Shown here one piece after another: positions 5,488 to 62,466 of a stretch of DNA of 64,000 nucleotides. Below the pieces are notes generated by a model. The model made no database searches. It saw only the letters and a program-made list of their open reading frames with translations, and had not been told where the DNA came from. Position 1 is the first letter of the stretch. Every line of letters begins with the position of its first letter. Source of the DNA: a bacterium (lineage in GTDB: Bacteria > CAYTYR01 > UBA6262); contig JAQTQE010000007.1 in NCBI GenBank assembly GCA_028712365.1, positions 1,026-65,025 on the forward strand, written 5' to 3'. Made by a program: the position numbers and the translations under genes.

Positions 5488-5498
5488 TAACGCTCCAG

Positions 5499-6488: not shown

Positions 6489-6497
6489 GATGTTCCC

Positions 6498-6857
6498 CTA
6501 TTTAGTTGTCTTTCTCTCGTTATAGCCTTTATCGCCATATGGCTGTAGTTTATCGAGCCACATTGCTTCAAGCACTTCCAGGTCATCGGAATAATTATAA
6601 GCTGGATCTTCTTTGGGCTTGAGCTGGTCAATTATTTCAAAAACGAAATTATCCTTGCCAAATTCCCTATAATCCTTCTGCAGATCCGTATTTGGATGGC
6701 TGCCCATATCTAATTGGAATGTTTCCCTATTGATCCTGCCCGGTATATTATTACTATTAATGACCAGGATCTTGCCATTTACTTTATTCCGTATTTTAAA
6801 AACACCCATCGGTTGCAAGGTTTCTTTGTATTGCTTTCTCAGCGCTTTTTTATCCAA
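6498..6857 (-). CDS. Small GIY-YIG-like nuclease family protein.
   Basis: GVFKIRNKVNGKILVINSNNIPGRINRE...GSHPN..LQKDYREFGKDNFVFEII resembles stand-alone GIY-YIG proteins in its Arg, H-N and FEI(L) positions. The YIG motif is degenerate. Confidence 0.4.
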   Translation of the reverse strand: MDKKALRKQYKETLQPMGVFKIRNKVNGKILVINSNNIPGRINRETFQLDMGSHPNTDLQKDYREFGKDNFVFEIIDQLKPKEDPAYNYSDDLEVLEAMWLDKLQPYGDKGYNERKTTK

Positions 6858-7348: not shown

Positions 7349-10300
7349 TTATTGCTTTTTCATGGTGATATAAATGTTCTTTTTATACTGGTTATTATCA
7401 GCGTCTGTCCAGGCAATAGTAACCTTACCGGTTTGATCAGCGATATAGGAGCCATGATCAACCATTACTGTGACAATATCTTCTTCTCCCGTAGTATCAC
7501 CGTGAACCGGCATGATGATAGTGATCCAGTCTTCATCCTCGCTCAGCGTCCAGGAGATCGTCTGGCCGCTGGCGCTTTTTATTTTAAAAGCCCCCGCCTG
7601 CACTAAAGGCCCTATGATCAGATGCTCACTGTCTGTCTCCAGCAACGCCGGAAGGCTTTTTTTGCTTTTAGGCAACTGGTTTGGAAACCTCACGGCATTC
7701 GGATCATCCAGGGTGACTGTAATGAATTTCTTCCCGGCGCTACCCGCGTCCACCACCATTACCGTATGCGTGGAAGCTGTGACCGCGCTCCAATCCACGG
7801 TCAAAGCTACGGGCTCCATCTCATTGACAGTGGTACCAGTGGCTGGAGTGATCGCTAACCAGGTAACCGGCCGTAATTGGCTGATCGACCAGTTCATAGC
7901 CGCGAATCCATTATTCTCGATATTTATCTTCCTGGCAGTTTCCGGTCTATTGATGACCACTTCGCTTGCCGCGATAAATAATTCCGGTTGTACCGGCACA
8001 GAAACAGTGATATCTTTCCGTCCGGCGCCAGTACCATTCTCGTCAACGGCCAGGAGCGTGATCGTCCCGGTATAGGTTTTCGTCGCGGTTAATTTAGTCC
8101 TGTCTAATGTCACCCGCAGGATAAAATCATCCAGGTCATCATACACATAAGCTTCTGGTGTCACTGCGGTCCAAGCTTCACTATTGGCATGATCACGGCA
8201 GTTCACGCTAAACCAATCATCGCTGATATATATTTTGTATTTTAAAATTTTCCCGCCATCATTGTCGAGATAGATATATCTTTCACTTTCATTATTCGAC
8301 CAATCCAGGGTTAAGGGATAGGCCACCAGTTTGGCCGGCGGGTCAGCAGCCAAGTTCTTGGAATCGGGATTGCGCGGGTTGGTCCCGGCTGCTACTTCTG
8401 CGCTGTCACTGACAGCGTCATCATCGCTATCCTCATCAGTTATACTTGTGCCATATCTTATTTCCTGTGCGAGGGCTAGCCCGTCACCGTCGATATCCTG
8501 GTCGACGCTGTTATAAATACCATCATGATCATGATCTAAAGGCACGGCCAGGGTCACCTTGGCCATATTGCCGCTGCCCTTGGTTTCTTTCTTAGCCAGG
8601 CCAATCCCGTTTTTTACATAAACGATAAAAACCCAGGGGTCATGAGGGCTAACTGATGAGTATAGAGTCGACCCGAAAGCGCCAAGTTTCGCGCATTGGG
8701 CCAGGAAATTAACTTGTTTATGTTTAGCTAAAGCTAGAATATATTTGTCACTGGTATTGTCATATTGGTCTAGCCAGTTATGCACGGCTGTCACACTGGT
8801 TAGTTCCTTCATACTTTTACTTATCAGCCGGCCGCTGTCAGGGTCAAAAGCCGCGGCTAAAACACAAGCCGGGGAACTGGCGTCAAAATCCCAGATGAGC
8901 GAATCATTCTTAGTGATCCTGGCAGATGACGCGTTCAGGTCAGATCCTGCTTCTACTTCAAACACTGGTTTTAGATAATTCAACGCATTATATCTATTCC
9001 GGTAATCGGTAATAGCCGGGCGGGCGCGGCGATTATAACCGCTGGTGCCGCCGGTATCCCATCTTACGTGATCTATCCAGTACTGGATATTGCCGTTACC
9101 AGTCCTGATCGGCCTGCTGGAAACAGAGAAAACCATTTTCATCTTTTCCAGATTAAGCTTGGCCAAGTGCGACCCATTGGCAGGATGTTTGTAACCATAC
9201 TCATCCTGCCAGGTATAGCTGTGACTGTCCCACAAAGCGCTGATCGGCACAGTGATCTCCTGCCAGGCTGTACTATTAGCGTTGAATTCACTGAAATAAC
9301 TTTCATCGAACCATATAAAAACAGCGTTTTCCAAGCCGCTCTCGTCTTCGAACTTCAGGAAAATATCTTGCTTCAGCGGCTCCCCGATCGGTGTCGCCGG
9401 AGTAGTAGTTTGCTGGATCTTTATCCAAAATTTCAAATCACCATTGGCAAATCTTGATAGATCAATAAAATCCCTGGTGCGGAAGAGCCCCCAACCCCCG
9501 CCATAATCCTTGCCCCAGATCTCTGTATATGTGCAGCGGTGACCTTCGGGTATAATGTTGCCGGCCCCGCTGCCGCCAGTATAAGCATATTCTTTAAAAT
9601 TACTGTAATTTAACCTGCTGCCTTCCTGAAGGCTGATATAGTCAGCCTGGGAATTGATCTTACCATAACCTGTCCCTTGCGCCGGCAAGCCCCAGGTGAA
9701 AAAGTCCCAAGCCGGACTTCCGCCTTTTTGTTCACCGATCAAGCCCATATCGCTAAAGAAGACCAATGGGTTGATAGTCTTAGGATCCTGGCTGTTGAGC
9801 CCCCAAAACTCCTCTTCCATGCATCCGTCAGGCCACAAGTAAGTATTAGCCGGTACTCCGTTGTTTACCGGATAACCAGGATCATTATCATGAGTTTCCG
9901 GATTTTTGCCTTTCAGTTTCCACCATTCATCTACCCACTCAAAAGCGCAGCCACCAAGCAGGGAATCACTATTGTCTTGAGCCGACAACCGGCTTTGTAT
10001 TTCGCTCCATTGCCAACTGAGCCCTTCTTTCTGGCTCGCTACATCTTCAAATTCTTTTGCCGGGTCAGTATGGTAGCGCCACGCATCCACCCCATATTCA
10101 CTGAAATAATACGGCTTATTACACGTAACAGTATCGGCATACATCTCATAGAACGGGTCAAAGCTCTTGCCTTTATACAGGTTCAACCCTATCAGGTCAA
10201 TATTAGGCAACAAGCCAACACCGGCTTTATAATGTTCATATGAAGGATAATGCGGTTCACCCAAACACACGGCTACGGGATGATTGGGATCATTAGCTTT

Positions 10301-11089
10301 TATCCAGCCAGCCAGGTCGTTTACCGCCTGGCAGGCAGCTTCGAAACTGGCGTATCGCCACATATATGTTTGTTGATCGTTAAAATTGTAATTAAATTCG
10401 TTACCGATCGACCAGAACAGCAAGGCAGGATGATCTTTATACGTATTAATAATTTTTTGCGCCAACGCGGTATTGCAGTTTAAACCGTCTACCACCATGA
10501 TGACTTTCAAGCCGTTCCGGTAGGCTTCATCCAGGACTGCCAGGCCTTGTGTCACCGCGTTTGCCCCCTGATCGCCGATCATGGCCATACCATCCTGCCA
10601 ATCCATGAATCCATTACCATTTTCATCCAGGGCTACAGGATACCCGCCGATATATACTATATTGCCATTGGCATCGGTCTGCCACAGGAGGTGATCCGTA
10701 TTTTCATGGAAATATAAACTGCTGTCTTTAGCCAATCCCGGATCAATATACATTCTGATGGTATTGAACCCGGCTTCCCTGATCCGCGGGAAATCATACT
10801 TCGCCATCTCCCACATTCTCTTCCGGCCATCATGCTCGAATGGCGCTCCTGCCGGGTAGGTTTCCGAAGGCCAGAGAGTGGCTACGCTCCAACAGACCCC
10901 CTTGATCACGTAGTTAGTCTCTGCTTTCATCGTCCCGTCTTCCCTGATCTGATGAACTTTTAATTGGTGGCCGTCGACTCTGACCGTAGCAGGCACAGCC
11001 GGGATCGGGGGGAGCGGAGACAAGGTCTTACATGCCGCCAGAAAAACCAGTAGAACTGCCGCGGTGATGATCATTTTAAACACGCGCAT
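7349..11089 (-). CDS. Large multi-domain glycoside hydrolase lipoprotein (1246 aa). It has a GH-A clan TIM-barrel catalytic domain, Ca-binding TSP3-like repeats and Ig/BACON-like domains.
   Basis: The signal is MRVFKMIITAAVLLVFLAAC. The barrel motifs are GFNTIRMYIDPG, FWSIGNEFNYNF and YFSEYGVDAW. The run DHDHDGIYNSVDQDIDGDG...DEDSDDD is acidic and Ca-binding-like. Confidence 0.7.
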   Translation of the reverse strand: MRVFKMIITAAVLLVFLAACKTLSPLPPIPAVPATVRVDGHQLKVHQIREDGTMKAETNYVIKGVCWSVATLWPSETYPAGAPFEHDGRKRMWEMAKYDFPRIREAGFNTIRMYIDPGLAKDSSLYFHENTDHLLWQTDANGNIVYIGGYPVALDENGNGFMDWQDGMAMIGDQGANAVTQGLAVLDEAYRNGLKVIMVVDGLNCNTALAQKIINTYKDHPALLFWSIGNEFNYNFNDQQTYMWRYASFEAACQAVNDLAGWIKANDPNHPVAVCLGEPHYPSYEHYKAGVGLLPNIDLIGLNLYKGKSFDPFYEMYADTVTCNKPYYFSEYGVDAWRYHTDPAKEFEDVASQKEGLSWQWSEIQSRLSAQDNSDSLLGGCAFEWVDEWWKLKGKNPETHDNDPGYPVNNGVPANTYLWPDGCMEEEFWGLNSQDPKTINPLVFFSDMGLIGEQKGGSPAWDFFTWGLPAQGTGYGKINSQADYISLQEGSRLNYSNFKEYAYTGGSGAGNIIPEGHRCTYTEIWGKDYGGGWGLFRTRDFIDLSRFANGDLKFWIKIQQTTTPATPIGEPLKQDIFLKFEDESGLENAVFIWFDESYFSEFNANSTAWQEITVPISALWDSHSYTWQDEYGYKHPANGSHLAKLNLEKMKMVFSVSSRPIRTGNGNIQYWIDHVRWDTGGTSGYNRRARPAITDYRNRYNALNYLKPVFEVEAGSDLNASSARITKNDSLIWDFDASSPACVLAAAFDPDSGRLISKSMKELTSVTAVHNWLDQYDNTSDKYILALAKHKQVNFLAQCAKLGAFGSTLYSSVSPHDPWVFIVYVKNGIGLAKKETKGSGNMAKVTLAVPLDHDHDGIYNSVDQDIDGDGLALAQEIRYGTSITDEDSDDDAVSDSAEVAAGTNPRNPDSKNLAADPPAKLVAYPLTLDWSNNESERYIYLDNDGGKILKYKIYISDDWFSVNCRDHANSEAWTAVTPEAYVYDDLDDFILRVTLDRTKLTATKTYTGTITLLAVDENGTGAGRKDITVSVPVQPELFIAASEVVINRPETARKINIENNGFAAMNWSISQLRPVTWLAITPATGTTVNEMEPVALTVDWSAVTASTHTVMVVDAGSAGKKFITVTLDDPNAVRFPNQLPKSKKSLPALLETDSEHLIIGPLVQAGAFKIKSASGQTISWTLSEDEDWITIIMPVHGDTTGEEDIVTVMVDHGSYIADQTGKVTIAWTDADNNQYKKNIYITMKKQ

Positions 11090-15600: not shown

Positions 15601-15743
15601 TATGGAGGTGCCGGGAATCCTCCTCACCCAGGCCGTATGCGCGGCCTTCCTTCGTCGCCGGCCAGTCTCGCTCGGACCAATGGCGCTCAACTTGGCTTCG
15701 ATTCCCTTAAGCAAGGGAGAAAATATGGAGGTGCCGGGAATCG
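15590..15743. repeat. About 30-bp direct repeat of the tmRNA 3' end. Copy 1 is at 15590-15619 and copy 2, the functional 3' end, is at 15712-15743. The repeats flank a GC-rich 92-bp stretch.
   Basis: AAGGG(C/AG)AAAATATGGAGGTGCCGGGAATC occurs twice. Only copy 2 continues into the T-arm (GAACCCGG). Confidence 0.7.
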
Positions 15744-16075
15744 AACCCGGGTCCCAAAATACGGTGTCGAGAACTTCTACAGGTTTAGTCTAGTAATTGA
15801 TTTCGCTGCTTCTGGCTCCACTAGATAGGATACAAAGGCAGCTATCCTTACTGATCTCACTTGACTCGCTAAGGAGTAACTCGTCAAGCCAGCCTACAGT
15901 TTTTGTACCTCTACCGCCCGTAGGCAGAGCAGGTAAAGATACTACGCCTTAACAGGCGTATGCGTACTGCGTGTTATAGTTAGCAGTTATAATTTGCTAG
16001 GTATTTAACGGCGACCCAACCATGCCGACCTGCCATCCAAGACCCCAAATATTCCGGTCGAAACCTTTCACCCCC
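15726..16075 (-). ncRNA. ssrA: tmRNA (SsrA), standard one-piece form.
   Basis: The minus strand begins GGGGGUGAAAGGUUUCGACCGG... at the 5' end. It ends ...GGACCCGGGUUCGAUUCCCGGCACCUCCA with a tRNA-like T-arm and acceptor, and CCA is not encoded. The gene lies immediately downstream of smpB. Confidence 0.8.
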
Positions 16076-16694: not shown

Positions 16695-16781
16695 GGACGA
16701 GTGGCGGAATTGGCATACGCGTAGCGCTCAGGACGCTATGGTCGTTAGACCTTAAGGGTTCAACTCCCTTCTCGTCCACCA
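16695..16781 (+). tRNA. tRNA-Leu (anticodon CAG), type II with a long variable arm. CCA is encoded.
   Basis: GGACGAGTGGCGGAATTGGCATACGCGTAGCGCTCAGGACGCTA...GGTTCAACTCCCTTCTCGTCCACCA. The D-arm is near-identical to E. coli tRNA-Leu. The anticodon loop is CUCAGGA. Confidence 0.85.
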
Positions 16782-16919: not shown

Positions 16920-17819
16920 TTAGAATTTCACGCCTAAACTGATCCTATGCGTATCGCTCAGTTCGCCATATGGCACCCAGGCATAGGACAGGTTGATCTT
17001 GTTGATATTAAATCCTAATCCCGCGCTTACTCCTGCTAATCCGTCCAGTTTATCATCTTTACCCGCTTTGTATCCCAGGTCCAGCACCAGGGCATTGATC
17101 ACCTTGTATTCCATTCCTACGCCAATGGTCATTTTGGAATCATAGTAGTTGAGATCACTGGTCAGGTTGATCTTGGACAGGCTGTAGTTGATACCGGCCG
17201 CCAGGGTTAAAGGCAGGTCATATCCTTCGCTGATGAATTTCATCTGCGGCCCCAGGTTGCGTAAGGCTATACCGACATTTAAGTTGTCTATGCTGGTCTT
17301 GACCAATGCGCCCAGGTCCACAGCCATTCCGGTAGTGCTTTCATCATCGATCTTCTGGTTGATGACCTTGATACTGGCGCCTAAGGCAACCTTTTCATTT
17401 ATTTTCTTGGCCAGGGCTAAAGTCCCACAGGTATCAGTGGCGCTAAAAGTACCTAATTTTTCCCGGGTCTCGGACCGCTTCTCCATCTCCCCGGATTGCA
17501 GCATAACGATACTGCCGCCAAGAACTAAACCACTAGAGAAAGGTTGGGCATAGCTGGCAAATTCATAGTTCATATCAGCCAGCCAACTGGCATACATCGC
17601 GGATAATTCTTTCTCTTGCAGAAAGCCTAATCCTCCTGGATTCCAGTTGACGGCGTTGACATCATCGGCCAATCCCACATAATTGCCGCCCAGGGCAGAA
17701 GGCCTGGCCCCGGCGCCGATCTTTAAAAACGCCGCGCCCGTAGAAGCTGCCCAGACCGCGCTGGTTAGAATTAAGATTAAGCTGCTGCTTATTAGCGCCA
17801 CTTTCAACTTCCGTTTCAT
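16920..17819 (-). CDS. PorV/PorQ-family outer-membrane beta-barrel protein (T9SS-associated).
   Basis: It has a signal peptide. FLKIGAGARPSALGGNYVGLADDVNAVNWNPGGLG is the hallmark N-terminal motif of the PorV/PorQ/UPF0164 family. A C-terminal ...LGVKF closes the beta-barrel. Confidence 0.55.
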   Translation of the reverse strand: MKRKLKVALISSSLILILTSAVWAASTGAAFLKIGAGARPSALGGNYVGLADDVNAVNWNPGGLGFLQEKELSAMYASWLADMNYEFASYAQPFSSGLVLGGSIVMLQSGEMEKRSETREKLGTFSATDTCGTLALAKKINEKVALGASIKVINQKIDDESTTGMAVDLGALVKTSIDNLNVGIALRNLGPQMKFISEGYDLPLTLAAGINYSLSKINLTSDLNYYDSKMTIGVGMEYKVINALVLDLGYKAGKDDKLDGLAGVSAGLGFNINKINLSYAWVPYGELSDTHRISLGVKF

Positions 17820-17849: not shown

Positions 17850-20800
17850 TTATTTCAGTATCGCGAATTTCTTAGTTATCTTGAGCTTATCCGAACCTCT
17901 GGTCGCCACGATCCGCGCGATGTATACTCCACTGGCCTGTCCGGATGTATCCCATTGGTATTCATATGCATACTGGCCGTTAATGATAGTCGGAGTATCG
18001 GTAATCTCAAAGCTGTCCTGCAGGTCACCGGCGACATCATAGATGTATACTTCTACCTTGTCTGCTTCTCCCACTTCCACATGGATCACCGGTTGTTGGC
18101 TTTCCTTAGCCGGATTCGGATACACATAAGTCTCTCCTTCAACAAAGTCAGTGCTGGGCGCGTAACCCAGGGCCGCTGCTGCCATCGTGGTCGGTGAGAA
18201 TTTGAGCGCTACCCCGTTGCTGATGCTGGCGGTAGGATACGTTACTCCAGCGGTGCCGGTCGGATTCTCGATCCCGATCACCGTGGTCAGGTCTTTGGTC
18301 ACTGACTGGTATTGGTATACGATCACGCCGGTCTTGTAGATGATCACCTGGAAAGTTTGCTTGTTGGTGTTGGCGTAGTTATAGACGCTCCAGGTTACCA
18401 CAAACTTATCGCTATAGCTGCCATAAGTTATGGCACTGCCGGATTTGGCCGGATTGAGGTCCCGCCAGTAGGCGGCTAAGAGCGCGTTCGGCTGGTAACT
18501 GCTCGGTATGGTGACTGGTGAATAAGCGGTGCTATTGGAGACAAAGCTCATAAAGCCGTTGCCGCAAACATAGACTGAACTATAGCTGACGCCGTAGAAG
18601 CTGACCGTGAAAGGCAAGGTGAACAGCTTGCTCTGGTCATCCAGGGTAATGCCGGTCGTAGTGCTGGTGGTGATCCAGCTGTATGGCGTCGTGTTTACCG
18701 TATAAGTCGGCGCGTTACCTACCTGGATCAGGATCCCGTTGCTGGCCGCGGTATAGCTGCCATACAAGGTGGCTCCGTTACGGGCACGTACTCGCGCGTA
18801 GTAGGTTAACCCGTTGGTGCAGCCGCTGATGGCCTTGGTGACTACATTGCCAACATACTCATTGTAGGCAAAGGTACTGAATGATGTATTGGTGGATACT
18901 TGCAAAGTATACCCACTGATCCCGCTTTCCGCGTCGACGGCAGTGCCTGCGGTCCAGTTAAAGGTAAGGCTGGTGGAGGTGGAGGTTGTTCCGGCATCGG
19001 TCGGAACTGATGGCAAACCTGTCGGGGCAGTGGTATCGATCTTGATCCCGTTGCTGCTGCCACTGTATGTGCCGTACAAGCCGCCGCCGTTCTTGGCCCG
19101 GATCCGCGCATAATATGTCTGGCCCTGGGTGCAACCAGTGATGGTCTTGGTCAGAACATTCCCGGTATCACTGTTAAAGATGGAAGTAGCAAAAGTAGAA
19201 CTGGTGGAAACTTGCAGGGCATACCCGGCTATACCGCTTTCCGCGTCTGCCGCGGTACCTATCGTCCAGTTGAATACCAAGGTCGTGCTGGTGCTATATA
19301 CTCCGGCATCGGTCGGTACAGTGGGCGTACCGGTAGGAGCGGTTGTGTCCGCGGTCTGCACCAGTATACCATTACTGGCGCCTGAAAAACTGCCATATAA
19401 TCCAACGCCATTCTTGGCCCGGACGCGGGCATAATAAGTCAATCCATTAGTGCAGCCAGAAATAGACTTGGTCAGCACAGTGCTTACATCTCCATTGAAG
19501 ATAAAGGTGCTGAACGCGGTGCTGGTTGATACTTGCAGGTAGTAGCCATTTAAGCCTGATTCCGGATCAGCGGCGGTACCGGCAGTCCAGTTAAAAGTTA
19601 AAGTAGTACTACTTGAAGCAGTCCCCGCATCCGTTGGTACGGATGGTGTACCCGTGGGTGGAGTAGTATCCGTCGCTACCGGTACTTCATCATAAGAAAC
19701 TTCGTCTACATAAAAAGTAATGGGACTGGAGATGCCGGTATTGCGTGACGCTTCGATGAAAAAGTACCATACTCCATTTATGGAGCTGAGATTTAATCCA
19801 GCCAGGTCAATGGTAATCGGCTGCCAGGCAGTAGTTAAAGTGAAGGCAGACTCTTTCTTGGCAGTATCAGTAGCTTGACCCGTACCAAAGGTGACTACTA
19901 CGCCGTTAACTGAAGATTTTGCCAGGAAGGTCAGGCGTTTATTGCCGGTTAAGTTAATGCCTGCTCCATTCCAGTTCCCGGAGTACAAACTATAAATACC
20001 AGCCCAAGTCTCTGCTGAGGGATTATAAGTGAATTTTGTGCTGGTGCTGCCGCTATACTTCTCGCCGGTAAAAGCCGGATCACAAGTCAAGCTTGCTCCG
20101 TTATTGGATCCCATCCAGCCGGTAAGACCGTTCAGCCAGCTAGTGTCCCAATACATGCGATATGGGAACGTGCCTGTACCGCCGCTGTCTGAATGGTCAT
20201 AGGCAATAGTCATATCATTAAGATAAGGAGTAACTGCGGTATTGGTAGTGGCCAGGAAAGCCCTGACGCGCAGGTCAGACCCGGATGAAGGGAAAGTATA
20301 TTTTGTACCAGGGGTAATATCACGCCAGCTGCTACCACCATCATTACTCAAACGGAAAGTGAGACTCTGGCCGTTCAAGGTAGCGTTATAGGTTAAGGTA
20401 GCTGCTGTTATGTTAGTAGTAGCAATATCTATGGCCGTAGTCTCGGCAAAGGAACTAGTAACATATGATGTCCCTGCTGAGAACAAAGCCAGGTCACCGG
20501 ACCAAGCCCTGGTCCCGGCAGACAATATCTTATTGGCATACAGGTTACTGTTAGACATCCAGACGCCAAACAATCCGCCGGCTCCATCAGTGGCAATTTC
20601 AGCTCCGCTTTGGTCAATGAAATCAGTCTGGCAAATCTGGACACCGCCAGACGTCCATTGCGTGGCGTCAGTAGAACTAAGCTTTTGTCCGCGTAATGTA
20701 TAGTCATAACCGCTGCCAGTATCATAACGATCACGGAAAACGATATATTTATTTCCTGAGTAATCCGTGGCTATGTCTGCCAGCTCTTTTTGCAGGTACA

Positions 20801-21725
20801 TGGCCCCTGTATTGGAGATCTGGATCGGGCCAGCCAGCCTGGTACCGCTGGAATTATATTTTTCATAATATACCGTATAATTAACATTGTAAACAGCGCA
20901 AACATAACCCAAGGCATCTACTGCTATTTCTACTTGCCCCGGAGAGCCAACATCTACTGTCCAAAGGGTATTGCCACTGGCATCGATCCTGGTAATAGCG
21001 CCGTTAACGCTGGCAGTATAGGTATAGCCAACATTACTGGCAATAGCCGGGTCATTACCATTATTATACTTATCGCCCCAGAGCTTGTTGCCATTGATAT
21101 CAAACTTGGACATAAATGAGCCGGTCCCCTGGGGGCCATACCGCTGATAGATCACATATATATTATTACTATTGTCAACTGCCAGGTCATGCAGGCACCA
21201 TTCCGCTGAATAAGCCGCGGAATCAGCTTGCCGGTCCCATTGATAGTCCCCATTGGAATTGTATTTTAAAAGCCTCAGGTTACCAGTACTGACCGCGTAA
21301 GATACATATATATTACTACTGCTGTCACAGGCTACTCTTGGCGCCTGATCCCAGACACCATCCAACAGCACTGACTGGTTCAGTTTCTTATCTCCCCAGA
21401 TTTTGGTCCCGCTGGTATTGTACTTGGCGCCATAGACATCAATAGCCCCGTTACGGCTGTCTATCCAGACCATGATCATGTTGCCGGAGGCATCACGCGT
21501 TATGTGCATGCTCTTCTGGGTATAGCTGGCTGTGCTGGTGGTCGGCAAAGAAACTTGGCCGGTGGCAGTGTTCCATACCGCGGTGGTATTGGATGCTTTG
21601 TAGGTTGTACTAGTGAAGGTTTCGGTAAAACTGGTGGTGGTAGCTAGAGCCGCCTGCCCATAGCAGAGACAGGAAAAAATAGCTATGACCCTTACTGCAG
21701 ACTTAAGAATGGTACTCAACTTCAT
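17850..21725 (-). CDS. Giant secreted T9SS cargo protein (1291 aa) with beta-propeller-like repeats, three tandem fibronectin-III-like repeats and a C-terminal Por sorting domain.
   Basis: The signal is LCYGQAALA. Three ~97-aa repeats (PTG.PSVPTDAG...LTFNWT.GTA.D.ESG..GY.LQVST...GCT.G.TYYARVRA.NG.GLYG) show up as ~290-bp DNA repeats at about 18840-19700. The C-terminus is YVYPNPAKES...GVYIARIVATRGSDKLKITKKFAILK. Confidence 0.7.
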   Translation of the reverse strand: MKLSTILKSAVRVIAIFSCLCYGQAALATTTSFTETFTSTTYKASNTTAVWNTATGQVSLPTTSTASYTQKSMHITRDASGNMIMVWIDSRNGAIDVYGAKYNTSGTKIWGDKKLNQSVLLDGVWDQAPRVACDSSSNIYVSYAVSTGNLRLLKYNSNGDYQWDRQADSAAYSAEWCLHDLAVDNSNNIYVIYQRYGPQGTGSFMSKFDINGNKLWGDKYNNGNDPAIASNVGYTYTASVNGAITRIDASGNTLWTVDVGSPGQVEIAVDALGYVCAVYNVNYTVYYEKYNSSGTRLAGPIQISNTGAMYLQKELADIATDYSGNKYIVFRDRYDTGSGYDYTLRGQKLSSTDATQWTSGGVQICQTDFIDQSGAEIATDGAGGLFGVWMSNSNLYANKILSAGTRAWSGDLALFSAGTSYVTSSFAETTAIDIATTNITAATLTYNATLNGQSLTFRLSNDGGSSWRDITPGTKYTFPSSGSDLRVRAFLATTNTAVTPYLNDMTIAYDHSDSGGTGTFPYRMYWDTSWLNGLTGWMGSNNGASLTCDPAFTGEKYSGSTSTKFTYNPSAETWAGIYSLYSGNWNGAGINLTGNKRLTFLAKSSVNGVVVTFGTGQATDTAKKESAFTLTTAWQPITIDLAGLNLSSINGVWYFFIEASRNTGISSPITFYVDEVSYDEVPVATDTTPPTGTPSVPTDAGTASSSTTLTFNWTAGTAADPESGLNGYYLQVSTSTAFSTFIFNGDVSTVLTKSISGCTNGLTYYARVRAKNGVGLYGSFSGASNGILVQTADTTAPTGTPTVPTDAGVYSTSTTLVFNWTIGTAADAESGIAGYALQVSTSSTFATSIFNSDTGNVLTKTITGCTQGQTYYARIRAKNGGGLYGTYSGSSNGIKIDTTAPTGLPSVPTDAGTTSTSTSLTFNWTAGTAVDAESGISGYTLQVSTNTSFSTFAYNEYVGNVVTKAISGCTNGLTYYARVRARNGATLYGSYTAASNGILIQVGNAPTYTVNTTPYSWITTSTTTGITLDDQSKLFTLPFTVSFYGVSYSSVYVCGNGFMSFVSNSTAYSPVTIPSSYQPNALLAAYWRDLNPAKSGSAITYGSYSDKFVVTWSVYNYANTNKQTFQVIIYKTGVIVYQYQSVTKDLTTVIGIENPTGTAGVTYPTASISNGVALKFSPTTMAAAALGYAPSTDFVEGETYVYPNPAKESQQPVIHVEVGEADKVEVYIYDVAGDLQDSFEITDTPTIINGQYAYEYQWDTSGQASGVYIARIVATRGSDKLKITKKFAILK

Positions 21726-31365: not shown

Positions 31366-32145
31366 TTAAGCCTTCCCTATCAGTTCTTCGATCTTTTTCA
31401 GTAACTGGTCCGGTTCAAAGGGCTTGGTCATATACGCGTCAGCCCCTAATTGCTGTCCCAAATTGCGGGATTCCTCAGCGCTACGGGCCGTTAACATGAC
31501 GATCGGTATCTTCTTATAATTATTATCGAATTTAAGCATCCGGCATACTTTAAATCCATCTATCACCGGCAAGACCAGGTCCAGGAGGATCAAGTTGGGA
31601 TTGACCTTGTGTACCAACTCTAAACCAGCTTTGCCGTCGTGAGCCATAAATACGCTGTAGCCATTGGCTTCCAGCCTGATTTTCAGCATCCTGGCAATAG
31701 GCACCTCATCATCCACCACTACGATCTTTTTACGATTATCAGTCTCCGCCGGCGCCTGCTTGGCCTGGAACTCAGCCAGTAACTGCCGGGTCATGTACAC
31801 AATAATATCCGCGGCCGCCGGTTTTTTAATATATTTGGTGACGCCCAGGGTCATCGCTTCCAATAAAGCGTCTCTTTCAGTTTCATCGGATAATATCAGG
31901 ATGGGCCAACCTTTGGTGCGTTCATTCGTTTTTAGCCGCCGGACAAACTCCACCATGCTGACGATCAGTATCTTATCATCGATCACTACCGCGTCAAAAG
32001 TGCGCTCAGCGGTCATGACCTCATAAAGGCCTCTCTTGCCGTCACCGCACAAAGTTACCTCAAAATTATCCACGCTGAACTTGGTTTTAAGTTCTTCCCC
32101 CAGCTCATAATTATCACTAATGATCAAAACACTTTTATCCGCCAT
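31366..32145 (-). CDS. Response regulator with two receiver domains. The first is atypical and the second canonical.
   Basis: REC2 shows VVVDDE...ILLDLVLPVIDGF...TKPF. REC1 lacks the usual acidic pair (IISDN). Confidence 0.7.
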   Translation of the reverse strand: MADKSVLIISDNYELGEELKTKFSVDNFEVTLCGDGKRGLYEVMTAERTFDAVVIDDKILIVSMVEFVRRLKTNERTKGWPILILSDETERDALLEAMTLGVTKYIKKPAAADIIVYMTRQLLAEFQAKQAPAETDNRKKIVVVDDEVPIARMLKIRLEANGYSVFMAHDGKAGLELVHKVNPNLILLDLVLPVIDGFKVCRMLKFDNNYKKIPIVMLTARSAEESRNLGQQLGADAYMTKPFEPDQLLKKIEELIGKA

Positions 32146-32159
32146 TGCTCAACCTCTGG

Positions 32160-32278
32160 AACTTAGTCTATGGGTATAAGTTGTGGAAGTAGGTATAGAA
32201 CTAAGTCTGAAGTTTTTGGGTCAAAACCAATTCCCTTAGACTTTAGACCAAACTTACTTCCAAAACTTTCAACTTACT
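32160..32278. repeat. Family A palindromic repeat, copy 2. It is a full hairpin element.
   Basis: The left arm GTATAAGTTGTGGAAGTAGGTATAGAACTAAGTCT pairs with the right arm AGACTTTAGACCAAACTTACTTCCAAAACTTTCAACTTAC. It lies between the two response-regulator genes. Confidence 0.65.
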
Positions 32279-32650
32279 TCATTTTAAGAGCTTTCGTATC
32301 TTTTCCATTAATATTTCCGGTTCAAAAGGTTTGGGCATATAATCATCCGCGCCGGCTATCACTCCCAGGTCAGTGGCTTTTTCTTCCGCTTTTACCGACA
32401 ACATCAAGACCGGGATGCTTTTAAAAACCGGATCATCCTTTAACTTGCGGCATACTTCAAAACCATCCATCTTCGGCATCATAACATCCAGGATGATCAA
32501 GTCAGGTTGACTTTGCTGTACCTTAGCCAGGCCTTCCAGACCGTCATTGGCTACGTCTGCTTCATAACCTGATGCTTCCATCCGGATCTTCAGCATCCTG
32601 GCGATCTGCTTTTCATCATCAACAATGAGTATCTTTTTTTTCACAACCAA
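32279..32650 (-). CDS. Single-domain CheY-like response regulator.
   Basis: ILIVDDE...LIILDVMMPKMDGF...MPKPF motifs are present. Confidence 0.8.
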   Translation of the reverse strand: MVVKKKILIVDDEKQIARMLKIRMEASGYEADVANDGLEGLAKVQQSQPDLIILDVMMPKMDGFEVCRKLKDDPVFKSIPVLMLSVKAEEKATDLGVIAGADDYMPKPFEPEILMEKIRKLLK

Positions 32651-32664
32651 TTAATCCTTAGGAC

Positions 32665-34107
32665 TCACAAGGGGCGGTCTTGTAAGTTATTATGGGCTGA
32701 TTCCAATAGTTCTTTTGGCTTATCGCTATTATCCGGATAAGTGGTCCGTCCTATCTTGAGCCATGGTTTCTTTTCTTTTATCCGTAATTCAGCCCTGGAC
32801 AGTGATTCAATGATCCTGTGTTCCACGGCTTTGACTCCTTCCGCGTTCGCTTCCGGCAAAATAATGATCACTTCTTCACCCTCGATGATCACTTTATCAT
32901 ATGGCCGGCGCACCGTCCGGCTGATGAGCTGTTCCAGTTTTTTCAACTCCATTTCTATCTCAAACCCAGCCAGGTCCTTAAAATTATCCACCTTGATGAC
33001 CAGTATAGAAAACTTGGATTGGTAAATAAAAGCGGTCTTGATCACTTCTTCCAGCACTAACGTCAGGTAGTTCTTATGCTGGCGCTCTTCCAGGAATAAC
33101 TCATCTTCCGGCTTGATCTTGATCTCAGATTCTTTCTGTCCGGAATAACGAGGCAAAGTAAAAATAAATCTACTGCCTTTGCCCAATTCACTTTGCACGG
33201 AAATCTTGCCCCCATGGGCTTCTACCAGGCTCTTGGCAATAGACAATCCCAAACCACTACCGCCGCTCTGCCTGGTAAGATGAGAGCCAATTTGGTAAAA
33301 TTTTTCAAAGATCCTTTCCACCTCATCTTTAGGGATACCTAATCCGGTATCAGCCACACTTACTGCCACATAGCTAATATCAGCCTGGTCAGGTTCATTT
33401 ATTGTTTCTTTTTCAGCTACTGCTATTGTGATCCTACCACCCTCATTGGTAAATTTAAGGGCATTGTCTATCAGGTTGGTCACGATCTGGGTGATCTTAT
33501 CCGGATCGCCAAAGACCCTGGGCAATTCCCGGGGAATATCAAATTCCAAACCTATTTTTTTCTCCTGCATAGAAGCTTTATAACTATCTCTCAAATTTTC
33601 CAGCAGTTTGTTTATATCTACTTCCCTTTTAGCCAGCCGCAGCCTGCCAGCCTCGATACGGCTGACATCCAACAGGTCGCTGATCAGGCGCCCTAAACGA
33701 CTGGCCCCATCCAGAGCCATATTCAGGCATTCCTTTTGCGTCTCGTTAGTCGGTCCGGCTGTGCCATCCAGGTTCAGCCTAATGCCTTCTTTTATAATAG
33801 TCAATGGCGTGCGTAATTCATGGCTGACCATGGAAACGAATTCGCTTTTGGTCTGGTTCAGGCGCCGTAATTCATTCGTTTGCTGGTTAAGCCGTTCATA
33901 AGCAAAACTCAATTCATCATTGGCCGCCAGCAATTCAGACTGGGCAGCCTGTAATTCCTGCTGGCTGATCGTCAATTCTTTATTCTTTATCTCACACAGG
34001 GTATCGCTTTGGCGTTTACCCCAATAACCGATAGCCAGCAGGATCACCACTGCCAGCATCAGCAACACAAAGACAATCAGCAAATAAACATTGACCGGTA
34101 TATTCAC
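32665..34107 (-). CDS. Sensor histidine kinase with a C-terminal degenerate GGDEF-like domain.
   Basis: It has an N-terminal TM, a coiled coil, the H-box SHELRTPLT and the HATPase motif [19 protein letters not shown]. The roughly 150-aa tail aligns to GGDEF ([13 protein letters not shown]...[21 protein letters not shown]...ERI), but GG[DE]EF is replaced by EGEEV. Confidence 0.75.
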
Positions 34108-41047: not shown

Positions 41048-43090
41048 CTAGTATGTTTTATTCTTCTGCAGCCAGTTGTGCCATCTATCCTTGTCTTCAC
41101 CATAACTTTTACCGGTAATCCTCTCAAGCGCGACTGCCGCCACTACCCGGACACTGGCAAATTTGTCATTTAAAGCCTCGATCAATGGTTCCACTGCCTG
41201 TGCGTCCTTTATTTCTCCCAGGGCCCAGGCAGCTTTTTCCCGTACTCCTGAGTTGGGATCCTTTAAGATCTTGATCAACGGCAGGGTCGCCTGGTTGTGG
41301 GCGATCTCGCCAAGTGATTTAGCCACCTGCTCACGCACCAGTTCGCTTTCGTCCTGCAAGGCTTCTATTAAAGGTTGCACTGCTCTTGAATCCTTGATCT
41401 TGCCCAGGGCAAAAGCGACGTCGGTACGTATTTCCTTATTTTCATTTTTCAACGACATGATCAGCGGTTCTACCGCCCGGCTGTCACAAATTATACCCAG
41501 GGCTACCGCCGCTACGATACGCACATTTTTATCTTTATCTTTAAGCGCTCCGATCAATGGCTCCACTGCTTTGGGATCTTTTATCTTACCCAAAGACAAC
41601 GCGGCATTCCAACGCACTATATCAATTTTATCTTTAAGTAACCGGACCAGGGATTCAACTGCCCGGGGATCTCTCAACTCCCCCAAGGTCAAAGCGGAAT
41701 AACTGCGTACGACCTCATTGCTGTCATCCAGGGAAATGATCAACTGATCAATAGTTGCTTCTCCGATCTTCACCAATGCTTCAGAAGCTTTTTCCCGGAC
41801 CATTTCACTTTTGTCTTTCAACGCCAGGATCAGAGAAGCGATCGCCCGTTCATCCCTGATCTCCCCCAGGGCTTTAGCGGAATTTATTCTGACTTCTTCA
41901 TCCGCGTCCATTAAGGCTTCCGTCAGTCCCTCTAACGCCCGGTTGTCCCGCACTTCTCCCAATATTATGGCCACATTCCGGCGCACATTTACATTATTGT
42001 CTTTCAACGCCGAAATGAGCGGATTTACCGCCGGATTCCCGATGATCTTGGTAATAGCTTCGGTAACCGAACTTTGGATGAATTTAAAATTCTTTTCATC
42101 TCTCATGGCTTCGATCAGAGGCACCACCGCGCGGGTATCCCGTATTTCACCCAGCGCTTTGACTGCCTGCTCACGGACCATTTCACCTTTATCAGACAAA
42201 GCCGAGACTAAAGGGCCAACTGCCCGGTTATCCCTGATCACACCGAGCGCTTTAACCGCTTCTTCGCGGACAATGGCGCTTTCATCTTTTAATGCCAAGA
42301 CCAACGGCTCCACTGCCCGGCCATCGCCAATTTCACCGAGAGCTTTAGCCGCGTATTTCCTGATAAACCACTTATCATCGCTCAGAGCGGTAATTAACGG
42401 ATTAACCGCTGATTTGCCGATCTTAACCAAGGAGCGGGAAGCATACCGGCGGGCAATGTCATTCTTATCTTTAAGAGCGGTGATCAAAGCGGAAACCGCC
42501 GGTTCACCTATTCTCTCCAGGGATAGGATCGATTCCCTGAGCACAAAACCATCATCATCTTTCAAGCCGGCTACCAAGGCTTCCACTGCCCGGTTGTCAC
42601 CAATATCACCCAAAGCTTTAGCCGCGTGTTCCCTGACGGTGGAGTTCTCATCCCTGAGAGCGCCGATCAGGGCTTCTACCGCCCTGGTATTGCGCAGATC
42701 TCCCAGGGCCCGGGCAGCCTGGTCCCTGGCATACCACTTTTCCGCTTTGAGCGTCACGATCAGCGGATCAACGGCAGGCTCACCCGTGCTAACCAGGGCT
42801 TGTTCCGTGATCTCGATAAATTCACGGGAATTCGTATCCCCCAACAACTCGATCAGGTAAGGGATCGCTGGCGCTGCTTCTGCCCCCATATTCCTGAGGG
42901 CTATAACTGCCTGCTGTCTTTCATCTGGATTAGTGGAATACAATCTTTCTATTTGGGTCCTTACTGCTCCGGTAATAGAAGAGGGAATATGGGATGAGGT
43001 TTCATGCAACTGGGCAGATACTGGATTGGTGATGAACATAATGATACCGATTAATACTCCGAACCAACTCTTGGAGTTAATCGTTGTCAT
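41048..43090 (-). CDS. HEAT-repeat (PBS-lyase-like) protein, secreted or periplasmic.
   Basis: It has a signal peptide and about 18 tandem ~31-aa repeats (AA.ALG.IGD.RAVEPLI.ALKD....VR..A..ALG). The repetition is visible at the DNA level. Confidence 0.75.
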   Translation of the reverse strand: MTTINSKSWFGVLIGIIMFITNPVSAQLHETSSHIPSSITGAVRTQIERLYSTNPDERQQAVIALRNMGAEAAPAIPYLIELLGDTNSREFIEITEQALVSTGEPAVDPLIVTLKAEKWYARDQAARALGDLRNTRAVEALIGALRDENSTVREHAAKALGDIGDNRAVEALVAGLKDDDGFVLRESILSLERIGEPAVSALITALKDKNDIARRYASRSLVKIGKSAVNPLITALSDDKWFIRKYAAKALGEIGDGRAVEPLVLALKDESAIVREEAVKALGVIRDNRAVGPLVSALSDKGEMVREQAVKALGEIRDTRAVVPLIEAMRDEKNFKFIQSSVTEAITKIIGNPAVNPLISALKDNNVNVRRNVAIILGEVRDNRALEGLTEALMDADEEVRINSAKALGEIRDERAIASLILALKDKSEMVREKASEALVKIGEATIDQLIISLDDSNEVVRSYSALTLGELRDPRAVESLVRLLKDKIDIVRWNAALSLGKIKDPKAVEPLIGALKDKDKNVRIVAAVALGIICDSRAVEPLIMSLKNENKEIRTDVAFALGKIKDSRAVQPLIEALQDESELVREQVAKSLGEIAHNQATLPLIKILKDPNSGVREKAAWALGEIKDAQAVEPLIEALNDKFASVRVVAAVALERITGKSYGEDKDRWHNWLQKNKTY

Positions 43091-54101: not shown

Positions 54102-54185
54102 TGCCGCGGAAGGGATTTGAACCCCCAAGTCCTTGCGGACACATGGTCCTAAGCCATGCGTGTCTGCCAATTCCACCACCGCGGC
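54102..54185 (-). tRNA. tRNA-Leu (anticodon UAG), type II.
   Basis: The reverse complement reads GCCGCGGTGGTGGAATTGGCAGACACGCATGGCTTAGGACCATG...GGTTCAAATCCCTTCCGCGGCA. The anticodon loop is CUUAGGA. CCA is not encoded. Confidence 0.8.
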
Positions 54186-54456
54186 GTATTTTGCTGAAAG
54201 CTGAATGCTGAAAGCTAAAAGCCGAAGAGAAATGTTTTTGGCATCCAGCATTTAGCATTTAGCATTTAGCCAAAATTTACTTCGTAAATTTTGGGCCGTA
54301 GAGGACTCGAACCTCCAACCTTATCCTTAAGAGGGATCTGCTCTACCATTGAGCTAACGGCCCATATATAAACTGCTTGATGCTGGAAGCTGAAAGCTTG
54401 ATGCAAAATCTTTTAGCATCCAGCTTTTAGCATTTAGCGGTCTTTAGTAAATTAAG
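54186..54456. repeat. tRNA-spacer heptamer-based hairpins.
   Basis: GCTGAAAGCTGAATGCTGAAAGCTAAAAGC pairs with GCATCCAGCATTTAGCATTTAGCATTTAGC at 54186-54291. A similar hairpin lies at 54375-54447. Confidence 0.45.
54292..54363 (-). tRNA. tRNA-Lys (anticodon CUU), probable.
   Basis: The reverse complement reads GGGCCGTTAGCTCAATGGTAGAGCAGATCCCTCTTAAGGATAAGGTTGGAGGTTCGAGTCCTCTACGGCCCA. The anticodon loop is CUCUUAA, with one mismatched stem pair at 27-43. Confidence 0.65.
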
Positions 54457-54529
54457 CGCGCCTGCTGGGACTTGAACCCGGACATCTAGCTCCGGAGGCT
54501 AGCGCTCTATCCAATTGAGCTACAGGCGC
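54457..54529 (-). tRNA. tRNA-Arg (anticodon CCG).
   Basis: The reverse complement reads GCGCCTGTAGCTCAATTGGATAGAGCGCTAGCCTCCGGAGCTAGATGTCCGGGTTCAAGTCCCAGCAGGCGCG. The anticodon loop is CUCCGGA. Confidence 0.8.
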
Positions 54530-54737: not shown

Positions 54738-56150
54738 TTACTCGAACTTAAATCCTTCTTGCGTGACTACTTTAATGCAGGCATCAACTACCGCTGGATC
54801 ATAGAGGGTCCCTTTATTTTGGGAAATATGTTGCAGCGCTTCATTCATGGATAAAGCGGGACGATACGGACGGTCAGAAGCCATGGCCTCGACGACATCT
54901 GCGACTCCTAATATTTTAGCTTCCAGTAGTATTTGCTCATTGACCAAGCCTTTGGGGTAGCCGGAACCATTGGGCCTTTCGTGATGCTGTACCACGATCT
55001 GGGCGATCGGCCAGGCAAAATCAATGTTTTTCAAGATATCAAAAGCTACCTGGGGATGTAGTTTCATCAAGTTAAACTCATTCTTATCCAAAGCTCTTGG
55101 TTTGGTCAATATCTCGGCTGGCACGCAAATCTTGCCAATATCATGCAGGACACCGGCAATACGGATCATTTCGATCTGATCCTGAGTAAGCTTCATCTCT
55201 TTAGCAATGGCGCAAGCCAGGTTAGCTACGCGGCGCTGATGGCCGGCAGTATAAGCGTCGCGCATTTCCAGGGTCAGGGCCATAGCATTAATGATACCTT
55301 CCAGGACTTTCTTCTGCTGGACCAGGCTTTCCTGGACCTTTTCTTCTGCCATGGTACGCTCAATGATCTCTTTAACCAGCTTTTCATTAATTTCACTTAA
55401 TTCAGCGGTACGTAATTCCACCTGTTTTTCCAGGTAATCACGGGTTACCGTGATCTTTTGCAGGTTTTCGGCCATTTTATTGAACGAACTTGCCAATAAG
55501 CCGATCTCATCATTTGTTTTAATGGGTACTTTATAATCCAGGTCTCCCCGGGAAATATTTTGCGTACCTATTACCAGTTGGTCGATCGGTTTGCCCAGCA
55601 TGATCCTGATCAACCAGGAACTGCCGATAGCGGCCAGCAACATGCCTATGGCGCCCATGATCCAGATCGTTTTTTTGGCCTGCTCCAGCTTACTGGTGAG
55701 ACTATCCAAAGAAAATACGATCTTTACCTTGCCGATAGTCTCAATTTCCTTTTCGATCTGGCCGCCGCCTAAGATCAATTCTTCTTCACTTACCGACGCT
55801 TTTATCTTTTCGGTAATAATATTATTAGAATAAGCCCGCAACTGCTGGCTTTCTTTTTTACTGTCTTGAAATAATACCATTCCGGCTTGATCCTTAACTT
55901 CACAGAAAATAACATCTTTCTGCTGCATGGCTCCTTTACCGATCTTAGAAATCGAATCCTGGTCACTGATCAGCACGGGATATTCACAGCTATTGACTAC
56001 GCTGTTCAAGAGAGTATACGCCCGCTCATCCAACTCTACTAATAACGCCTTCTTTTCCTGGTTGACAAAATAGTACGAAAAGAATCCGCCCAGGATACCG
56101 ATCACCATAGTCACTAATAGAATAATTTTTTTATCGATGCCAAATCTCAT
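54738..56150 (-). CDS. Membrane-bound HD-GYP phosphodiesterase with a periplasmic sensor region and HAMP domain.
   Basis: Two TM helices flank a ~140-aa periplasmic domain. A HAMP domain and coiled coil follow. The HD motif is VLHDIGK and the GYP motif is HHERPNGSGYPKGL. Confidence 0.8.
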   Translation of the reverse strand: MRFGIDKKIILLVTMVIGILGGFFSYYFVNQEKKALLVELDERAYTLLNSVVNSCEYPVLISDQDSISKIGKGAMQQKDVIFCEVKDQAGMVLFQDSKKESQQLRAYSNNIITEKIKASVSEEELILGGGQIEKEIETIGKVKIVFSLDSLTSKLEQAKKTIWIMGAIGMLLAAIGSSWLIRIMLGKPIDQLVIGTQNISRGDLDYKVPIKTNDEIGLLASSFNKMAENLQKITVTRDYLEKQVELRTAELSEINEKLVKEIIERTMAEEKVQESLVQQKKVLEGIINAMALTLEMRDAYTAGHQRRVANLACAIAKEMKLTQDQIEMIRIAGVLHDIGKICVPAEILTKPRALDKNEFNLMKLHPQVAFDILKNIDFAWPIAQIVVQHHERPNGSGYPKGLVNEQILLEAKILGVADVVEAMASDRPYRPALSMNEALQHISQNKGTLYDPAVVDACIKVVTQEGFKFE

Positions 56151-57076: not shown

Positions 57077-57097
57077 CCTGCTTTTAAATCCTTAATC

Positions 57098-59302: not shown

Positions 59303-59319
59303 ATCTCATCCCCCTTTTG

Positions 59320-60267: not shown

Positions 60268-60292
60268 TTATCTGTCCTGCTCCTGGCGTTTA

Positions 60293-62443: not shown

Positions 62444-62466
62444 TGTATTGTTCCCCTATTTTTATT

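Follow-up and report, generated by a model that had tools for sequence, protein, structure and literature searches.

Histidine kinases known as direct receptors of the second messenger cyclic di-GMP (c-di-GMP) are, to our knowledge, just a handful, SgmT binding it via a dead GGDEF domain and CckA via its catalytic and ATP-binding (CA) domain. CckA is reportedly switched between kinase and phosphatase by c-di-GMP bound on the CA domain, and has no GGDEF fold. Output-less regulators, such as the FrzZ-type dual-receiver proteins and the CheY-like single receivers, act by protein-protein interaction. Here we describe a three-gene two-component module, consisting of a histidine kinase of 480 amino acids (aa) with a degenerate GGDEF-fold tail, a stand-alone receiver (REC) and a dual-receiver protein (REC'-REC), which lies within 64,000 nucleotides of the bacterial contig JAQTQE010000007.1 (positions 1,026 to 65,025; this whole stretch is called the window hereafter). 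The likeness to CckA is one of concept, in that c-di-GMP is proposed to change the output of the window kinase directly. The module differs from FrzZ and CheY-like systems in that no CheA, CheW or methyl-accepting chemotaxis protein (MCP) genes are found nearby and the cognate kinase is of class I (HisKA).

The nearest functional precedent is SgmT of Myxococcus xanthus, an orphan hybrid histidine kinase and c-di-GMP receptor (PMC3509222). The C-terminal GGDEF domain of SgmT has a dead active site (A-site), which reads GGGVF, and is without K442 and R446, but keeps RHPD and R794; it binds c-di-GMP via the inhibitory site (I-site), with an effect on localisation and none measurable on kinase activity in vitro (PMC3509222). 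The window kinase follows the same plan, a kinase with a dead C-terminal GGDEF domain in which RxxD and a secondary arginine (PleD R390, SgmT R794) are kept, and it is not an SgmT orthologue. SgmT is cytoplasmic, with the order GAF-HK-REC-GGDEF and a DNA-binding partner, DigR, whereas the window kinase is arranged as transmembrane (TM) helix, coiled coil, kinase and dead GGDEF, with no GAF domain, no fused receiver and output-less receivers as partners. Compared by description only, its GGDEF domain is the more eroded of the two, having a deleted substrate loop, a shortened GG turn and lysine in place of D327.

PopA of Caulobacter belongs to the I-site receptor GGDEF domains, a class whose description by Schirmer and Jenal is cited in PMC3509222, and resembles the window protein in combining a dead A-site with a retained RxxD motif, which in PopA makes a receptor rather than an enzyme; however, PopA is a response regulator (REC-REC-GGDEF with a dead GGDEF) and the window protein is a kinase in which c-di-GMP binding is putative. 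The tandem receiver of the module recalls PleD (REC-REC'-GGDEF) in joining one canonical and one adaptor-like domain, and the single receiver recalls the output-less single-domain receiver of the Caulobacter DivJ/PleC-DivK circuit; as for PleD and DivK, phosphorylation would be tied to c-di-GMP, which is putative here. In contrast to PleD, the atypical receiver comes first in the window protein, and the GGDEF fold is dead and carried by the kinase rather than the regulator; no orthology is implied. Anabaena CdgK/CdgS was considered as a further kinase-GGDEF fusion and rejected, being a kinase with a separate, active REC-GGDEF protein.

The kinase and its GGDEF-fold tail

The kinase gene (32665..34107; minus strand, like every feature of the module) has a GTG start and encodes a protein with Pfam matches to HisKA, HATPase_c and GGDEF; its NCBI record, MDD5131557.1, found by exact-sequence match, is labelled merely 'ATP-binding protein'. 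A first-pass annotation, made from the sequence alone, had described here a kinase with TM, coiled-coil, HisKA and HATPase regions, and this is borne out by Pfam, hydropathy and AlphaFold2 (AF2) modelling, the strings it quoted being present. The HisKA or dimerisation and histidine phosphotransfer (DHp) domain occupies residues 87-154 (33646..33849; PF00512, E 2.9e-17), with the phospho-accepting H96 in SHELRTPL (95-102), and HATPase_c occupies residues 200-320 (33148..33510; PF02518, E 2.7e-32). All of the kinase boxes are intact, namely H (H96), N (211), G1 (253), F (267) and G2 (283). A single N-terminal TM helix (residues 7-29; 34021..34089) is indicated both by Kyte-Doolittle hydropathy, where the top 19-mer is residues 9-27 with a mean of 3.41, and by a helix in the AF2 model; there is no second hydrophobic segment in the kinase, and only about 6 residues lie outside the membrane. 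The full-length AF2 model, built on a 53-sequence alignment, has a mean predicted local distance difference test (pLDDT) score of 82, and shows one unbroken helix at residues 5-113 that comprises the TM anchor, the coiled coil and DHp helix 1, followed by the CA domain, a low-confidence linker at 330-343 and a confidently folded C-terminal domain. On the strength of its motifs, the 480-aa protein is almost certainly a membrane-anchored, active-looking class I (HisKA) histidine kinase. No extracytoplasmic, PAS, GAF or HAMP domain was found in it by Pfam, hydropathy or AF2, and hence, with a single TM helix, the GGDEF-fold tail is its sole non-kinase domain.

Two connecting segments are strongly conserved. 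The cytoplasmic coiled-coil stalk (residues 30-86; 33850..34020), defined by the AF2 model and by conservation, is continuous with the DHp helix and has many invariant columns at 41-85 among orthologs, with a ratio of nonsynonymous to synonymous substitution rates (dN/dS) of 0.031. It stays near-invariant in orthologs down to 58% overall identity, whereas the TM helix varies far more; this is unusual for a plain spacer, and the stalk may be a partner-binding or signal-transmitting helix. The linker between CA and tail (residues 321-345; 33073..33147) is predicted to be disordered, with pLDDT <50 at 330-343, and is nonetheless among the most conserved parts of the kinase, being 96% identical to its counterpart in an ortholog of 86% identity (dN/dS 0.015). 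About 21 aa of it are a clade-specific insertion relative to distant family members, and the segment could be a candidate short linear docking motif.

The tail itself (residues 346-480; 32668..33072) is identified as a GGDEF fold by Pfam, AF2, Foldseek and hhalign. On the full kinase, the Pfam GGDEF model matches residues 346-476 (E 2e-11) with 44.2 bits (gathering score 23.8), rising to 47.3 bits on the isolated tail, and the NCBIfam model TIGR00254 scores 41.9 against a cutoff of 37.4. The AF2 model of the tail alone (pLDDT 87, predicted TM score (pTM) 0.77) has the topology b1-a1-a2-b2-b3-a3-b4-a4-b5, where b is a strand and a is a helix. When this model was compared with the PDB by Foldseek, the top 47 matches were all GGDEF domains (best E 3e-7, TM 0.66-0.71), the first match of another kind being a class III cyclase at rank 48, and hhalign of 31 tails against 16 canonical GGDEF domains gave a probability of 99.9 (E 4e-31). 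The first-pass annotation was therefore right about GGDEF homology, a proposal that alignment to the Pfam model now places above the gathering cutoff, but its extension of roughly 150 aa is a domain of about 135 aa preceded by a linker of about 25 aa.

Residues of the tail were mapped onto PleD numbering through phmmer alignments to PleD, GcbC and others, and through hhalign profile-profile alignment. The metal ligand D327 corresponds to K372, a position occupied by S, K or R in most of the family; the loop bearing the guanine-binding N335 is deleted (3-4 residues, in HMMER and hhalign alignments); D344 falls on M386 or on E385, according to the alignment used; and the phosphate-binding K442 corresponds to P479, the protein ending at residue 480, before R446. 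The GG[DE]EF signature is reduced to EGEEV (E409-V413; 32869..32883), which is one residue short: the stretch from D404 to P418 lacks a residue, and in the hhalign alignment the gap falls inside the GG turn (EG-EEV against xGGEEF). The placement of this gap, and of the D344 equivalent, differs between alignment methods and leaves the conclusion unaffected. With D327, the N335 loop, K442, R446 and an intact signature lost, the tail is not an active cyclase, and we regard it as virtually certain, judging by these residues, that it is a GGDEF fold unable to act as a diguanylate cyclase. This agrees with the earlier view that the domain is catalytically dead and altered at its upstream substrate-binding positions, and no intact GGEEF was found; the string EGEEV that had been offered as the signature is present and degenerate, while its equation with GGEEF depends on the alignment.

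Loss of catalysis has not meant loss of constraint. All 15 orthologs (58-94% identical overall) keep the tail, and residues invariant among them include R400, D404, K405, E412, L417-P418-E419, R431, G453 and P458. Measured against the 86%-identity ortholog, dN/dS is 0.111 in the tail and 0.080 in CA, compared with 0.013 in DHp and the values given above for the coiled coil and linker. The tail is under purifying selection, about as strong as that on the ATPase domain, and both its dN/dS and its invariant residues argue that it is not a relic.

A family of kinase tails and output-less receivers

With a profile of the tail, 1.84 billion cluster representatives were searched exhaustively by HMMER. 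Matches at E <= 1e-30 number 94 clusters, and relaxing the threshold to E <= 1e-10 gives 33,824, the weak end of the list grading into the general GGDEF superfamily. In 100 of the 144 best matches the tail comes directly after the kinase core, whether or not extra receivers are present as well, and in most kinase-tail proteins among these 144 the tail ends a few residues from the C-terminus; the SgmT-like order of kinase, receiver and tail was not seen among them. Every kinase-linked tail in the best clusters is degenerate (102/102), with the consensus RRxxDxxxK-DTGE[ILV], and each of the 18 canonical GG[DE]EF domains among the best matches occurs in a protein without a kinase. The N-terminal sensors of tail-bearing kinases vary (PAS, GAF, dCache and solute-binding protein (SBP) domains), some members carry a receiver or PilZ domain after the tail, and the kinases are found in metagenome-assembled genomes labelled Omnitrophota, Aminicenantales and Thermoanaerobaculia. 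The tail is, judged on its sequence relationships, a member of a large, kinase-dedicated family of degenerate GGDEF domains. In the literature we found no description of this family, nor of c-di-GMP signalling in these phyla; the family, the lack of another sensor domain and the published precedent had all been missed at first pass.

The partners of the kinase are receivers without output domains, as the first-pass annotation had maintained and as Pfam confirms. The stand-alone receiver gene (32279..32650) encodes 123 aa that form a single receiver throughout (Response_reg at residues 7-119, E 3.5e-29). The dual-receiver gene (31366..32145) encodes 259 aa, of which the second domain, REC2 (31387..31725), is a canonical receiver at residues 141-253 (E 5.3e-37), the protein stopping directly after it. 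Aligned to CheY, both the single receiver and REC2 prove complete for the DD / D / T-or-S / K residues, with S in the single receiver. The first domain of the dual protein, REC1 (31771..32133), is atypical: the CheY D12 equivalent is Ser, and the loop after the phospho-accepting aspartate reads DDKILIVSMVE in place of the MPxMDG pattern. These features are kept in orthologs, and REC1 fits the D2 adaptor half of PleD slightly better than D1. It had been said to lack the acidic pocket residues, which is an overstatement, since equivalents of CheY D13, D57, S87 (for T87) and K109 are retained; a pseudo-receiver would have lost the phospho-accepting aspartate or both acidic pocket residues, and in REC1 only D12 is changed.

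Because neither the single receiver nor the REC'-REC protein has an output domain, both should act by protein-protein contact, or else as phosphate sinks or allosteric modulators. Two more specific outputs that had been suggested find no support in the locus. For a phosphorelay, no histidine phosphotransfer (Hpt) protein is present in the locus, Pfam detecting no Hpt domain in the three module proteins and none being found among the locus neighbours, although one may be encoded elsewhere in the genome. For a chemotaxis-like output, a survey of the window by open reading frame (ORF) calling and two Pfam batches, which covered part of the window ORFs, turned up no che genes, the kinase is of the HisKA type, and the genes flanking the module are nadB/panC/panB/folK at one end and uvrA/pal/ybgF/tolA at the other.

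The three genes are consecutive minus-strand ORFs, in the order kinase, single receiver, REC'-REC, and constitute a three-gene two-component module. Intergenic gaps are 27 base pairs (bp) between nadB and the kinase gene, 14 bp between the kinase and single-receiver genes, 133 bp between the two receiver genes and 141 bp between the REC'-REC gene and uvrA. A terminator scan found no terminator-like sites on the coding (minus) strand between the three genes; a promoter scan was uninformative, as its 7 promoter-like sites hardly exceed the expected 6.2. Within the ortholog group the gene order folK-panB-panC-nadB-HK-REC-REC'REC-uvrA-pal-ybgF-tolA is kept.

The pairing recurs beyond this group, which is the arrangement that the first-pass annotation had proposed to look for in relatives. 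Five independent tail-bearing loci (that of the window's own clade, L087, L089, L001 from Aminicenantales and L010 from Omnitrophota) were compared by counting every receiver ORF, single or double, within 3 kilobases of the kinase, and all five have only output-less receivers. The control loci came from a contig profile scan seeded with generic HisKA peptide patterns, are centred on ordinary and mostly unrelated kinases, the scan having yielded no close ortholog, and number 78, of which 64 have any receiver ORF; 53 of these 64 include a receiver with an output domain and 6 are exclusively REC-only. The same contig scan yielded the cross-phylum tail-bearing loci L001, L002 and L010. REC-only pairing thus looks like a property of the family, in a small sample of five loci, and it points to a phosphorylation pathway that is read by protein-protein contacts and not by transcription. 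Our near-certainty is a joint one, and extends to the active-looking kinase, the dead GGDEF fold, the REC-only partners and membership of the family taken together.

Several family members have elaborate surroundings. Locus L089 contains two tail-bearing kinases (1-2178 and 5001-6560), one a dCache-HAMP-PAS-GAF kinase of 1229 aa and the other of 519 aa, and in alternation with these are four single receivers and a further kinase of the dCache type; directly downstream are an MshEN/T2SSE ATPase, a T2SSF protein and pseudopilins, which suggests that several kinases form a network serving a pilus or a secretion apparatus. One distant family locus adjoins a pilus ATPase of the MshEN type. In three homologs (P0059, P0102 and P0119) a PilZ domain with a visible RRxxxR-like motif directly follows the degenerate tail, and the tails of P0059 and P0119 keep RxxD.

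Candidate inputs to the kinase

The A-site of the tail is lost, and the I-site motif RxxD is kept. In alignments to GcbC and PleD, the sequence RPYD (R401-D404; 32896..32907) stands at the RxxD position, 4 residues before E409 where 5 is canonical, with the invariant R400 directly preceding R401, and R431 (32815..32817) is the equivalent of PleD R390, the third primary I-site residue. Together, RPYD and R431 align to R359, D362 and R390 of PleD, and to the 'RRPAD' of c-di-GMP-bound GcbC. Among the 15 orthologs R400 and D404 are invariant, while position 401 is R in 12, K in 2 and H in 1. R431 is an arginine in 52 of 53 aligned sequences and in 143 of 161 family tails; across the same 161 tails D404 is conserved in 144 and R400 in 139, with R401 being R in just 86 and K in another 10. 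The window also contains a gene of 470 aa (54738-56150, minus strand) for a HAMP-HD-GYP protein (HAMP and HD_5), in which HD (336) and HHERPNGSGYP (389-399) are intact; it probably encodes a c-di-GMP phosphodiesterase, to judge from these motifs, and would suggest that the organism turns over c-di-GMP.

Our preferred interpretation, which is tentative and which we would put at rather less than an even chance, is that regulatory signals enter this otherwise sensor-less kinase through its tail, which most likely binds c-di-GMP at the I-site-like surface and thereby alters kinase/phosphatase output to the REC-only partners. Such an input, which the first-pass annotation had also suggested, is plausible, by motif and by analogy, given the I-site-like residues, the lack of any other sensor, the HD-GYP gene, the PilZ fusions, the MshEN neighbour and the precedent of SgmT. 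We infer ligand binding, its effect on the kinase, the phosphotransfer partners and the downstream target alike. In outline, c-di-GMP would bind the retained surface formed by R400/R401-x-x-D404 and R431, and once bound might restrain or cross-link two CA-tail units of the kinase dimer; the balance between autokinase and phosphotransfer activity on one hand and phosphatase activity on the other would shift; the neighbouring single receiver and REC2, the canonical half of REC'-REC, would each accept the phosphoryl group; and these two proteins would then act by protein-protein contact, as phosphate sinks or as allosteric modulators.

Several observations weigh against c-di-GMP as the input. Strict RxxD is found in only 84 of 161 family tails (52%), or 92 of 161 with K allowed, and the better-conserved arginine lies one position upstream (R400), making the motif RxxxD. 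RxxxD is also present, as 'REGID', in the closest canonical GGDEF domains, and with the partial conservation of RxxD this implies that the R/D/R triad is perhaps partly ancestral or structural. That the conserved R/D/R may be structural is the chief weakness of a c-di-GMP-receptor function. In addition, the kinase activity and phosphotransfer of SgmT are unchanged by c-di-GMP in vitro (PMC3509222). The survey of the 64-kb window by ORF calling, with Pfam scans of part of its ORFs, turned up no active diguanylate cyclase, and the synteny of the module inside its ortholog group may be a mere reflection of close relatedness. An Rfam scan of the window found no c-di-GMP riboswitch, matching only one tmRNA and four tRNAs.

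Nearly as likely as c-di-GMP input, and in our view a serious possibility, is a ligand-free role in which the tail would be a protein-protein module, that is, a dimerisation, CA-restraining or receiver-docking element, possibly acting with the disordered linker. It would tune the kinase/phosphatase balance or the choice of partner, with the signal entering via the membrane helix, the coiled coil or a partner protein. Such a role accords with the loss of every nucleotide-binding residue of the A-site, with strict RxxD in just ~52% of family tails, and with the place of the tail at the extreme C-terminus of kinases whose sensors are diverse (dCache, PAS, GAF, SBP), as befits a generic accessory; the specific pairing of tail-bearing kinases with REC-only proteins fits it too, as does the fact that the coiled coil (dN/dS 0.031) and linker (0.015) outdo the tail in conservation. 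It accounts less readily for R431 and D404, which are near-invariant at exact I-site positions, for the characterised precedent of SgmT, which binds c-di-GMP, and for a 480-aa kinase without other recognisable input domain.

The remaining explanations are all improbable, to different degrees. Sensing of GTP or another mononucleotide at the active-site remnant, in the manner of the degenerate GGDEF domain of Caulobacter PdeA, had been entertained by the first-pass annotation and draws on the retention of both signature acidic residues in the window's own clade (E411 is E, D or Q, and E412 is invariant) and on a hairpin geometry that AF2 predicts with confidence. The tail has, however, lost the A-site contacts to GTP through deletion of the N335 loop, replacement of D327 by Lys and K442 by Pro, and termination of the chain before R446, and the E370 equivalent is mostly Gly across the family ('DTGE'); we consider GTP sensing very unlikely, if still the least improbable of these three. 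Heavy erosion of the catalytic residues might instead mark a decaying relic without function, but a dN/dS of 0.10-0.11, equal to that of the CA domain, the many residues invariant in 15 orthologs, the retention of the tail across several phyla (94 clusters at E <= 1e-30) and an intact fold predicted with confidence make decay even harder to credit. As for a bifunctional kinase and active diguanylate cyclase, the Pfam and NCBIfam GGDEF cutoffs are passed and some homologs are named 'diguanylate cyclase', yet GG[DE]EF, D327, N335, K442 and R446 are missing here and the canonical signature occurs in 0 of 102 kinase-linked tails of the best clusters, leaving this idea with practically no probability at all.

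A broader proposal, which we think unlikely, is that the RRxxD...K-DTGE tail defines a distinct, kinase-dedicated pseudo-cyclase family of Elusimicrobiota, Omnitrophota, Aminicenantes and other uncultured lineages, and that with obligatory output-less partners it forms an unrecognised cassette gated by c-di-GMP or by the conformation of the tail. If such a cassette exists, then in the sensor-less members the second messenger would be the only input, and the c-di-GMP level would be converted into receiver phosphorylation. If the tail is merely a docking or dimerisation element, the finding is an ordinary one. Its value lies in the family-level pattern, a large family in uncultured phyla, and in a minimal test system: those minimal members in which the dead GGDEF tail is the only candidate input would make a clean setting for learning if a pseudo-cyclase can gate a kinase, and by what means.

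The surroundings of the module

The UvrA protein encoded beside the module has named relatives that are all Elusimicrobia, Elusimicrobiota or Endomicrobiales, the closest at 88% identity and the next at 64-68%. The source is accordingly most likely a metagenome-assembled genome of Elusimicrobiota; Omnitrophota, to which the names of distant kinase matches pointed, is rejected on the UvrA evidence. In the locus of a 61%-identity ortholog (L084), the gene right after the kinase (7446-7838) overlaps the kinase stop codon and encodes a receiver of 130 aa that is closer to REC2 of the dual-receiver protein than to the single receiver; the contig ends shortly afterwards, and the receiver arrangement may differ in that lineage.

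Across the window (1-64000), 50 of 51 non-overlapping ORFs of at least 100 aa run along the minus strand, and nearly all 2-kilobase intervals have a negative GC skew, indicating one long co-directional stretch that presumably lies on a single replichore. The tmRNA (182 bits) and the four tRNA genes lie at 15723-16075 (minus strand), 16695-16778 (plus strand) and 54102-54529 (minus strand), three of the tRNA genes being clustered just downstream of an argininosuccinate-synthase-like gene and adjoining the HD-GYP gene. The HD-GYP gene stands at the end of a series of three TonB-dependent receptor genes (57098-59302, 60293-62443 and 62467-63960), which alternate with two genes for periplasmic binding proteins of the PF04392 ABC_sub_bind family (56150-57076 and 59320-60267); this run of receptor, binding-protein and signalling genes at 54738-63960 looks like a repeated cassette.

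Elsewhere in the window there are signs of type IX secretion, in that one protein bears a Por_Secre_tail/CHU_C sorting domain and another, in the outer membrane, is PorV/PorP-like. Adjoining these are two secreted proteins of 1246 and 1291 aa, one of which matches BACON and a glycosyl hydrolase 2 TIM-barrel; the type IX-related and adjoining genes are at 4312-5487, 16920-17819, 7349-11089 and 17850-21725, all on the minus strand. Finally, a minus-strand gene at 41048-43090 encodes a protein of 680 aa that has a hydrophobic segment at its N-terminus and is otherwise almost all HEAT/PBS-lyase repeats (HEAT_2, E 7e-115).

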